Source of the DNA: an uncultured delta proteobacterium
GTDB taxonomy: Bacteria; Myxococcota; Myxococcia; Myxococcales; Myxococcaceae
Assembly: GCA_963771175.1 (NCBI GenBank)
Contig: CAVYSY010000040.1
Location: 288,001 to 352,000 of the forward strand
Length of the DNA stretch: 64,000 nt
Reading direction: 5' to 3'
Under the pieces are notes generated by a model. It searched no databases, had not been told where the DNA came from, and worked only from the letters and a program-made list of their open reading frames with translations. The first letter of the stretch is position 1, and each line of letters starts with the position of its first letter. Below are positions 60,657 through 62,689 of this stretch, piece after piece. The translations under genes were made by a program, and so were the position numbers.

Positions 60657-61835
60657 ATGGCCGTCCGCTTCGAGCTCGTCACCACCGACCCCTCCGGGGC
60701 CCGTGCCGGCGTGCTGCACACCCGCCGTGGCTCCATCCCCACGCCCGTCTTCATGCCGGTGGCCACCCACGCCTCCTTCCGCCACCTCGGCATGGAGGAG
60801 GTGAAGGCCACCGGGGCGAAGATCATCCTGTCCAACACGTACCACCTGATGCTCAAGCCGGGCATCGAGGTGTTCAAGCGCTTCGGCGGCATCCACCCCT
60901 TCATGCAGTGGGATGGGGCGGTGCTCACGGACTCGGGCGGGTTCCAGATCTTCTCCCTCCCCGAGGACCGGCTCATCACCGAGAAGGGCGCGCACTTCCG
61001 CAGCTTCCACGACAACAGCCGGCAGCTCCTCAGCCCCGAGTCCAGCATCGCCATGCAGCAGGCGATCAACTCGGAGATCATGATGGTGCTGGACGTGTGC
61101 ATCGACTCGCGCACGGACGAGGCCGGCACGCGCGAGGCCATGGAGCGCACCCACCGCTGGGCCCTGCGCAGCCTCGCGGCCAAGAACCAGGTGGACACCG
61201 GTCAGGCCCTCTTCGCCATCGTCCAGGGCGGCGTCCACCCGAACCTGCGTGACGAGAGCGCCGCCTTCCTCACCCAGCACCCCTTCGACGGCTTCGCCAT
61301 CGGCGGCCTCGCGGTGGGCGAGACGAACGAGGAGCGCAAGGCCATGACGGCGCGCGCCGCCGCGTCGCTCCCCCAGGACAAGCCTCGCTACCTCATGGGC
61401 GTGGGCACTCCCACGGACCTGCTGGAGGCCGTGCTGCGCGGCGTGGACATGTTCGACTGCATCATCCCCACGAAGATGGCGCAGCAGGGCTACGCCTACA
61501 CCTTCCAGGGCCTCGTGCGGATCACCCGCCAGGTGTTCCGGCTGTCGGACGAGCCGTTGGACCCGACGTGCGACTGCCACGTGTGCAAGCACTTCAGCCG
61601 CGGCTACCTGCAGCACCTCATGAGCGGCAAGCACCACATCGGCTCGCGCATGCTGTCCGTGCACAACGTGCACCACTACCAGCAGCTCACCTGGAAGATG
61701 CGCGATGCCATCATCAAGGGGACCTACGAGCAGGCCTACCGCGAGCTGAAGCAGCTCGTCGCCACGCCCAAGGACCTCAAGGAGGCGAAGCTCGAGGCGA
61801 GCCCCGGCTCCGTCACCCTCAAGGAAGTGGGCTGA
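60657..61835 (+). CDS. tgt: tRNA-guanine transglycosylase family protein (divergent)
   Basis: TPVFMPVAT, NTYHL, LTDSGGFQ, LDVC, IVQGG, GGLAVGE, PRYLMGVG, GVDMFDC; Zn ligands CDCHVC...HN. Confidence 0.9.
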   Translation: MAVRFELVTTDPSGARAGVLHTRRGSIPTPVFMPVATHASFRHLGMEEVKATGAKIILSNTYHLMLKPGIEVFKRFGGIHPFMQWDGAVLTDSGGFQIFSLPEDRLITEKGAHFRSFHDNSRQLLSPESSIAMQQAINSEIMMVLDVCIDSRTDEAGTREAMERTHRWALRSLAAKNQVDTGQALFAIVQGGVHPNLRDESAAFLTQHPFDGFAIGGLAVGETNEERKAMTARAAASLPQDKPRYLMGVGTPTDLLEAVLRGVDMFDCIIPTKMAQQGYAYTFQGLVRITRQVFRLSDEPLDPTCDCHVCKHFSRGYLQHLMSGKHHIGSRMLSVHNVHHYQQLTWKMRDAIIKGTYEQAYRELKQLVATPKDLKEAKLEASPGSVTLKEVG

Positions 61836-61839
61836 GCGC

Positions 61840-62689
61840 GTGGACTCCCAGAATCCTCGTGATGGCGACTTCGAGCTGGTGACGTTGCGCAACGGCTCGC
61901 GGGCGGTGCGGCACCTCGGACATGGCGAGGTGATGCACCCCGTCGGTGGGCCCGTGGCAGGAGGCGCTGCGTCTCTACGTGGAGCAGCCGCGTCTGGCCG
62001 AGCGCCTGCGCACCCCGGGAGCCCCCCTGGTCATCCACGACGTGGGCCTGGGCGCGGCCACCAACGCGGTGGCGGCGCTCACCTGCGCGCGCGAGCTGGG
62101 CGCCGAGCGCCGGCGGGCACTGGAGCTGGTGAGCTTCGAGGTGGACCTGGCGCCGTTGCGGCTCGCGCTGGCGGACGCGGCGGGCTTCCCCTTCCTGCAA
62201 CCCTTCCGCGAGGCGGCCGAGGCCCTCATGCGCGACGGCGTGTGGGAAGGGGAGGGCGTGCGCTGGAGGCTGCACCTGGGGGATGCGCAGGGGCTGCTCC
62301 GGGCGGAGCTGCCGAAGGCGGACCTGGTGTTCTTCGACCCGTTCTCCCCGGCGTCCAACCCGGAGATGTGGACGACGGCGGTGCTGTCGCGGGTGAGGGA
62401 GTGCTGCCGGGAGGACGAGGAGGGGGCGCTGCTGCTGACGTACAGCGCGGCCACCCCCACGCGAGTCACGCTGCTGCTCGCGGGCTTCTACGTGGGCGCG
62501 GGGTTGTCCACGGGGACGAAGGGGGAGACCACGGTGGCGGCCACTCGCCGCGAGTCCCTGGCCTCACCCCTGGGCGAGCGCTGGCTGGAGCGGTGGCGCC
62601 GCTCCTCGTCCCGCGCTCCCCACGGTGGGTCGCTTACGCCGGAGGTCGAGACGCGGGTGCTTGCCCACCCGCAGTGGTCCGCGCGGTGA
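61840..62689 (+). CDS. MnmC/MnmD-like SAM-dependent methyltransferase; frameshift near 61950
   Basis: DVGLGAATN (motif I), LVSFE, HLGDA, FFDPFSPASNPEMWT, LLTYSAA; starts 4 bp after the tgt stop. Confidence 0.87.

Follow-up and report, generated by a model that had tools for sequence, protein, structure and literature searches.

A divergent tRNA-guanine transglycosylase paralogue coupled to an MnmC2-like methyltransferase in Myxococcota, a candidate methyl-preQ1 RNA-modification module

The window analyzed here, a 64,000-nt stretch of contig CAVYSY010000040.1 (positions 288,001–352,000, forward strand; assembly GCA_963771175.1, 81.66% complete by marker genes), carries a divergent second tRNA-guanine transglycosylase (Tgt) followed closely by a methyltransferase. 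We call this Tgt, and the clade to which it belongs, TGT2. An earlier note on this DNA had described a Tgt-family gene trailed after 4 bp by a stand-alone methyltransferase with the MnmC signature. The order and spacing are as described, with the TGT2 stop ending at 61835 and a GTG start at 61840, and the second gene has both a PF05430 domain and, inside that domain, FFDPFSPASNPEMWT at 62330–62374; it is not one open frame, however, as an extra base interrupts it at 61942/61943. The features of the locus are the following.

60657..61835, + strand: TGT2, divergent tRNA-guanine transglycosylase paralogue, 392 amino acids, ATG start, stop at 61833–61835
60930..60932, + strand: Asp92 of LTDSGG, aligned with the same-motif Asp of the best solved Tgt chain
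61455..61457, + strand: Asp267 of DMFDC, the catalytic nucleophile position by alignment to solved Tgt
61467..61490, + strand: PTKMAQQG in place of the canonical PTRxARNG, with both arginines gone (read from the sequence)
61569..61664, + strand: zinc site Cys305, Cys307, Cys310 and His336, aligned to solved Tgt
61836..61839, + strand: spacer of 4 bases between TGT2 and the methyltransferase
61840..61941, + strand: 5′ part of the methyltransferase gene, GTG start, N-terminal FELVTLRNG...GEVMHP module (tblastn and alignment conservation)
61942..61943, + strand: one extra, frame-shifting base (G), a gap in three of three relatives and absent from sequencing-run contigs
61946..62689, + strand: 3′ part of the methyltransferase gene, open reading frame (ORF) of 247 amino acids with the Rossmann core that binds S-adenosylmethionine (SAM) and a clade-specific C-terminal tail
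62039..62065, + strand: DVGLGAATN, SAM-binding motif I, whose D, G, L and G are invariant in 28 linked methyltransferases and 69 fusions
62336..62374, + strand: DPFSPASNPEMWT, motif IV with the catalytic Asp, which is invariant and aligns with Asp193 of Aquifex aeolicus MnmC2

TGT2 has the hallmarks of a complete bacterial Tgt. A Pfam profile search matched PF01702 over nearly the whole length of the protein (447.4 bits, E 4.6e-134), and TGT2 passes TIGR00430, the bacterial Tgt equivalog with a cut-off of 306.75 bits, at 427.1 bits, as do fused orthologues at 423.1 and 436 bits. Among solved structures, bacterial Tgt chains come closest to it (E 1.9e-101). The motifs LTDSGGFQ, DMFDC, LDVC, GGLAVGE, YLMGVG, CDCHVC...HN, FMPVAT and PTKMAQQG are all present, and alignment to solved Tgt bears out the claim that DSGG, DMFDC, the zinc site, DxC and GGLAVGE are retained. 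We aligned 17 split forms and 69 fused forms, the latter 48–88% identical to a 656-residue fused protein from a complete genome (P0001); Asp92, Asp267 and all four zinc ligands are invariant in both groups. We take Asp92 and Asp267 to be the counterparts of Asp102 and Asp280 in Zymomonas mobilis Tgt. The pocket residues D..C, Q, GG.AVG and M are invariant across the 69 fusions, and a residue-by-residue alignment to solved Tgt finds the base pocket of TGT2 identical to that of the Escherichia coli enzyme, which uses 7-aminomethyl-7-deazaguanine (preQ1). The catalytic Asp, zinc site and preQ1 pocket are thus shared with bacterial Tgt (EC 2.4.2.29; E. coli and Z. mobilis structures). Because the catalytic, pocket and zinc residues are invariant in the fusions, TGT2 should be catalytically active and able to bind a preQ1-like base.

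The same genome holds a second, canonical tgt, as the earlier note had envisaged. A genome-wide PF01702 search found the window gene and one more, at C40:222992-224049, 125 kb from TGT2 and in two frame pieces. This gene reads FMPVGT and PTRCARNG, and has queA on its upstream side and secD-secF on the other, followed by a RecJ-like gene. We searched 40 related genomes for both types. A TGT2-type gene, 55–97% identical to the window protein, is present in 29, all of which also have a canonical-type gene (40–48% identical to the window protein); a further ten have the canonical type only, and one genome, 73% complete, matched neither type. In quick, unrooted IQ-TREE reconstructions with 27–28 TGT2 rows and 16 canonical rows, the divergent Tgt forms a clade of its own, split from canonical Tgt with a Shimodaira-Hasegawa-like approximate likelihood ratio (SH-aLRT) of 100, and both types roughly track the family structure of the phylum. 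TGT2 therefore differs from canonical Tgt in its separate clade, ~44% identical to the copy kept by the same genomes, in having no queA or secDF next door, in its lost arginines, and in the methyltransferase linked or fused to it.

The arginines concern a segment shortly after the nucleophile. None of the 57 readable linked Tgt sequences has Arg at either PTRxARNG position; the TGT2 consensus is PTkmAqQG, with variants of the form P(T/S/P)(K/Q/T/M..)(M/L)A(Q/W)(Q/R)G, and the consensus of 16 canonical Myxococcota paralogues is PTR.ARNG. MPVAT and PTKMAQQG had both been put forward as marks of divergence, and both stand in the window protein. MPVAT is nevertheless confined to a subclade, the remaining members retaining MPVGT, and the mark that defines the whole TGT2 clade, as read from the alignment, is loss of both PTRxARNG arginines. 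In the Z. mobilis Tgt-RNA structure, these arginines presumably touch the anticodon loop. The available portions of the Tgt literature place Arg286 near the ribose-34 and phosphate-35 pockets and hold nothing further on the roles of Arg286 and Arg289. Because the two arginines after the nucleophile are lost, the site preference of TGT2 is probably altered; their joint loss suggests changed RNA recognition and a target other than that of canonical Tgt.

TGT2 and the methyltransferase travel together. Among the 29 TGT2 loci of the related genomes, the methyltransferase lies directly downstream in 28, seven of which are a single open frame, and the contig of the 29th ends 184 bases past TGT2. PF05430 matches of at least 50 bits are confined to the TGT2 genomes of this set and absent from the 11 without TGT2. 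In a wider sample of 151 Myxococcota genomes, TGT2 occurs in 35 (in one recognized only by tblastn, in two pieces) and the methyltransferase in 33 of these, the two misses being a contig end and a 75%-complete assembly; most genomes have the two genes fused, adjacent or separated by 1.1 kb. A methyltransferase-only query against 185,579 species genomes returned 587 relatives, and among the best 80 named loci a TGT2-type gene stands directly upstream in 61, fused in 41, with upstream sequence missing in two. These counts agree with the suggestion that the divergent clade is consistently adjacent or fused to this methyltransferase. Both PF01702 and PF05430 were found on 119 of the best 120 matches to P0001 among 5.8 billion proteins, the named ones being called only Tgt or queuine tRNA-ribosyltransferase. 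When TGT2 was searched against 1.84 billion protein representatives, the nearest were mostly 650–736 residues long, and ordinary Tgt proteins of ~380 residues appeared from 47% identity downward. Taken as a whole, functional coupling of TGT2 and the methyltransferase is strongly supported.

Named carriers include Archangium gephyra (97%), Cystobacter, Pyxidicoccus and Hyalangium. The pair is adjacent in Myxococcus xanthus (locus L120), separated in Corallococcus, with no Tgt within 2.5 kb upstream, and fused in Anaeromyxobacter oryzae and A. soli. Outside the phylum, fused forms occur in metagenome-assembled genomes (MAGs) labelled Opitutae, Nibricoccus and Chthoniobacteraceae (Verrucomicrobiota) and Oligoflexia and Pseudobdellovibrionaceae (Bdellovibrionota). 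The Tgt parts of these outside fusions fall within the TGT2 clade in the tree, and the window Tgt clusters with fused forms.

Two further kinds of methyltransferase locus were seen along the way. Six loci in Bdellovibrionales or Oligoflexales MAGs (L123, L125, L128, L130, L132 and L134) have linked-type methyltransferases, 38–44% identical to the corresponding part of P0001, and the 2.5 kb to each side of them hold no Tgt. A genome that carries the fusion (G021:C321) has a second, unlinked methyltransferase at L083:294-1160, 39% identical to the methyltransferase part of the fusion and scoring 67.9 bits on NF033855, the MnmC2 equivalog-domain model, below its cut-off of 136 bits.

The methyltransferase shares the class I SAM fold of MnmC2/MnmD (A. 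aeolicus DUF752, 3vyw; the N-terminal domain of E. coli MnmC). PF05430 is the sole Pfam match of the window protein (71.4 bits on ORF 61946–62689), and the best sequence-profile match of the methyltransferase is 3vyw (E 2e-33). A model of a 92%-identical intact orthologue, with a predicted local distance difference test score (pLDDT) of 95.3, has the same A. aeolicus structure as its best fold match (E 3.1e-18, template modelling score 0.73/0.67), followed by E. coli YfcK and MnmC. The methyltransferase motifs D.GLG and DP.S...W are invariant across the 69 fusions, and the motif-VI Tyr is kept in at least 90% of linked methyltransferases. In A. aeolicus MnmC2, the part of the structural report available to us identifies Asp193, the equivalent of the motif-IV Asp, as the base that takes a proton from the substrate amino group, and the motif-VI Tyr is said there to stabilize the substrate (PMC3527978). 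The residues of the linked enzymes are compatible with MnmC2-type amine chemistry.

We propose that TGT2 inserts preQ1 into RNA and that its partner N-methylates the amine of the inserted base, a reading to which we assign a probability of roughly 0.45. The QueF route would supply free preQ1 to the cell; because QueF is present in all five genomes tested, the base should be available. TGT2 would then exchange a guanine in RNA for free preQ1, most likely in a tRNA anticodon loop and probably with an altered site preference. In a second step, the MnmC2-like enzyme would use SAM and the motif-IV Asp to add a methyl group to the aminomethyl nitrogen of the base now in the RNA, yielding 7-(methylaminomethyl)-7-deazaguanosine. 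Methylation would keep this preQ1 out of the QueA/queuosine route served by the canonical tgt-queA genes, and the two genes would make up one self-contained RNA base-modification module. The inserted base, the methylated atom, the RNA and its position, and the order of the steps are what we infer from these comparisons, and a methyl-preQ1 product is a plausible hypothesis. A bolder version of the proposal, which we consider rather unlikely as a whole, has the module writing 7-(methylaminomethyl)-7-deazaguanosine at a site unserved by ordinary Tgt (non-GUN tRNAs or another RNA), with the methyl cap blocking QueA, as a parallel 7-deazaguanine RNA modification in Myxococcota, Verrucomicrobiota and Bdellovibrionota.

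The best-surviving alternative, itself somewhat doubtful, keeps the same two-enzyme module and changes its chemistry or target. TGT2 might insert another 7-deazaguanine or act outside tRNA position 34 (at another tRNA position, in rRNA or in mRNA); the methyltransferase might act on the free base before insertion, or on another amine of the inserted base. All of these variants are possible, and the data fit either order of the two steps. The loss of the arginines in all 57 linked Tgt sequences, with their retention in the canonical paralogues, points to changed nucleic-acid recognition and fits such a scheme, as do the altered N terminus and tail of the methyltransferase. Specifically, the linked clade has the N-terminal motif GEVMHP..GP..EA..LYV where MnmC2 has tyrS..Ga..Es.hVF, reads DVGLGA at motif I where canonical MnmC2 of the same phylum reads ElGlGtGlN, and extends into a basic C-terminal tail of ~45 residues that MnmC2 lacks. 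The base pocket identical to that of preQ1-using Tgt argues for preQ1 instead, and the amine of preQ1 fits an MnmC2-type active site; to our knowledge, preQ1 is the sole bearer of an aliphatic primary amine in the pathway. No helicase, ATPase or nuclease of the kind found in DNA-modification systems is conserved nearby (85 ORFs at 13 loci).

It is improbable that the partner is an ordinary MnmC2/MnmD that finishes 5-methylaminomethyl(-2-thio)uridine, mnm5(s2)U, on Lys, Glu and Gln tRNAs, with TGT2 a redundant queuosine Tgt and the two linked through a shared wobble position. PF05430 membership, the MnmC2 fold and the catalytic Asp speak for this explanation, and the preprint that mentions such fusions counts them, in the portion available, among MnmC2 fusions (10.1101/2023.12.21.572861). 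A separate mnmC or mnmD elsewhere in the genome, also envisaged in the earlier note, did not turn up: the window methyltransferase is the only MnmC-like gene of its genome and of a complete relative (G004). MnmE and MnmG are present in the window's genus, and MnmM (PF06962), an alternative methylase of the 2-thiolated substrate nm5s2U, was found in none of five genomes. The linked proteins nonetheless score unlike MnmC2. All six linked methyltransferases tested fail the NF033855 cut-off at 67.9–94.9 bits (83.2 bits for the full-length window orthologue, 79.8 bits for the window ORF), whereas the phylum's stand-alone, unlinked PF05430 proteins reach 115–150.8 bits, six of seven passing, and two bifunctional MnmC proteins of the phylum pass at 214 and 223 bits. 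The constant company of a Tgt paralogue with altered RNA-contact residues is also left unexplained.

The distribution of MnmE bears on the same point. According to the available part of the MnmC2 report, nm5(s2)U, the substrate of MnmC2, is made only by MnmE-MnmG (PMC3527978), so that MnmC2 works downstream of that pair. MnmE (PF10396) was found in 115 of the 151 phylum-sample genomes and in all 15 genomes with unlinked PF05430 genes, but not in 14 of the 33 genomes with a linked methyltransferase, all of them 88–100% complete. Three of the 14 are complete, single-contig fusion genomes in which TrmE_N and the MnmG C-terminal domain are both missing, although two relatives have both; in one of the three, the sole strong GIDA-family match scores like the relatives' shorter paralogue. 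Where MnmE is rare within a family, both of the genomes in which it does occur hold a bifunctional MnmC alongside it, and in Anaeromyxobacter neither MnmE nor MnmG was found in the searches made. Because MnmE and MnmG were not found in those lineages, the linked methyltransferase there cannot use MnmE-MnmG products. A role in mnm5s2U synthesis is thereby weakened, by orthology, for the window's genus as well.

Could the methyltransferase of this strain instead be a real pseudogene, disabled by a one-base insertion, so that the module is crippled here whatever its role elsewhere? The extra base does stand in the window sequence and splits the protein over two frames: the frame opened at GTG 61840 reads MDSQNPRDGDFELVTLRNGSRAVRHLGHGEVMHP... 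and carries the conserved N terminus (…FELVTLRNGSRAVRHLGHGEVMHP) up to the break, and the remainder follows in the next frame from 61946. In relatives, tblastn shows this N terminus and the remainder of the gene to share one frame, and three of three related genomes are without the base at 61942/61943. Contigs from three of four public sequencing runs (X1, X2 and X4, from two studies, 98.8–99.4% alike) omit one letter at 61943, and the fourth run barely covers this position. Leaving the extra base aside, the two halves match intact orthologues at 91–93% protein identity. The source assembly is incomplete, and queA, the canonical tgt, secD, secF and mnmG are likewise split over frames in it. 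Because relatives and run contigs are without the base and these housekeeping genes are broken in the same way, the frameshift is likelier an assembly error than a real lesion, which makes a pseudogene very unlikely. These genes, each in two or more frame pieces, lie at C40:221800-227600 (locus L006:7803-13612) and on contigs C24 and C44, and indel errors seem common throughout the source assembly.

DNA modification of the DpdA type is put low: by score TGT2 is a full bacterial Tgt, and its surroundings hold no partners of the Dpd kind.

Insertion of preQ1 into RNA followed by N-methylation of its amine has its own difficulties, and a number of observations weigh against it. The genus of the window possesses MnmE and MnmG, its genome offers no other MnmC-like gene, and the methyltransferase is read here in two frames. 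The 14 carriers without MnmE amount to about four lineages and are not 14 independent cases. Linkage is also imperfect: in seven genomes of one genus, 10–15 kb separates the two genes, which keep the same strand, two other genomes of the phylum sample have them on different contigs, and no Tgt lies within 2.5 kb upstream in 17 of the best 80 methyltransferase loci. An Rfam scan of 59400–63500 found no preQ1 riboswitch or other Rfam family. In the model of the fusion protein (pLDDT 92.2, predicted template modelling score 0.65), the placement of the two domains relative to each other is uncertain. The Tgt trees were built without canonical Tgt of Verrucomicrobiota or Bdellovibrionota, and the clade's place of origin is not readable from them. 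Methyl-preQ1 in RNA would, moreover, be an undescribed nucleoside, proposed from sequence and models. The complex predicted for split TGT2 and methyltransferase (score 0.00, mark 0.32) weighs neither for nor against binding.

The earlier note had already read the pair as inserting preQ1 and methylating its amine instead of maturing it to queuosine, or as acting on a non-canonical RNA. That interpretation is partly supported: it gains from the canonical tgt, the separate clade, the linkage and the weakened case for plain MnmC2, and it loses from the methyltransferase being the only MnmC-like gene here and from the MnmE and MnmG of the genus.

The neighbors of the pair in the window are a voltage-gated-type K+ channel, an ABC-F ATPase, a BrkB-family protein and a Myxococcales DUF2378 protein. 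As the earlier note had it, queA, yajC and secD are not among them; a Pfam scan found none of the three among the window genes near the pair. Nothing resembling a promoter or terminator was found in 60300–62900, and a match to an Rfam miRNA model at the locus was set aside as chance (20.9 bits against a gathering score of 60). A Pfam comparison of the 85 neighboring ORFs at 13 diverse loci revealed no conserved third partner gene; only local synteny recurs near the pair, with the ABC-F ATPase within one family.

Several side observations were made in the same data. In one complete genome, the fused gene is preceded at a distance of 14 bases by a DTW-domain gene (PF03942, 111 bits; L056:6635-7237); we take the DTW-domain family to be tRNA aminocarboxypropyltransferases. 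Near its end, at 63521–63814 on the + strand, the window encodes a Phd/YefM-type antitoxin (PF02604, 65 bits). One example of the pairs set 10–15 kb apart is locus L062 (G180:C1:7919500-7939000) in genus g27, to which all seven such genomes belong. The genome's second, weak PF05430 match, on contig C20, was rejected as an MnmC: it is a spermine-synthase-like domain in a 1066-residue protein (L007:4521-7718, − strand) that scores 61 bits for a spermine/spermidine-synthase-like domain and 21 bits, under the cut-off, for PF17874 (MalT-like tetratricopeptide repeats). Frames of ~1100 residues like this protein recur in relatives.

The 36 of 151 Myxococcota genomes in which MnmE was not found (families f7, f8 and f14 and genus g29) include entire families with complete genomes. 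MnmG was not found either in three complete genomes tested from one such family. One of the MnmE-less families appears Anaeromyxobacter-like, as the organism names suggest, and such lineages may be without xm5U34 wobble modifications altogether.

The nearest precedent for the proposed product comes from phage DNA. The available sections of one report describe N-methyl-preQ1, or 7-(methylamino)methyl-7-deazaguanine (mdPreQ1), in phage DNA, made by DpdA together with DpdM, a DUF3109 metalloprotein (PMC10516641). There, a Tgt-superfamily enzyme inserts preQ1 and a methylase acts on the amine, a sequence of events that is only proposed for the window pair. The phage system, as far as these sections go, differs in its DNA substrate, in DpdA belonging to another Tgt subfamily, and in DpdM being unrelated to PF05430.

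For the protein family itself, the available text of a preprint ('Alternate routes to mnm5s2U synthesis in Gram-positive bacteria', bioRxiv 10.1101/2023.12.21.572861) names MnmC2-TGT fusions in one sentence among four other MnmC2 fusion types and proposes no function for them. In the window, that PF01702 + PF05430 fusion family is represented by a split form, whose orthologues are fused. Our literature search found no study of a Tgt and PF05430 methyltransferase pair. What is new here is the split form, the clade-wide loss of the arginines, the failure at the MnmC2 cut-off alongside same-phylum controls that pass, the occurrence in genomes without MnmE and MnmG, and the spread to two further phyla. 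The linked methyltransferase can thus occur without MnmE or MnmG, in contrast to MnmC2, and the names "Tgt" and MnmC2 probably mislabel these proteins.

The question is directly testable, as the pair occurs in Myxococcus xanthus, a standard genetic model, and Anaeromyxobacter, with both activities on one fused polypeptide and MnmE and MnmG not found, offers a clean background. If the proposal is true, a Tgt paralogue of shifted specificity and a recruited amine methyltransferase would together give bacteria from three or more phyla an uncatalogued modified RNA base, a counterpart in RNA to the mdPreQ1 of phage DNA, made with the help of an unrelated methylase.

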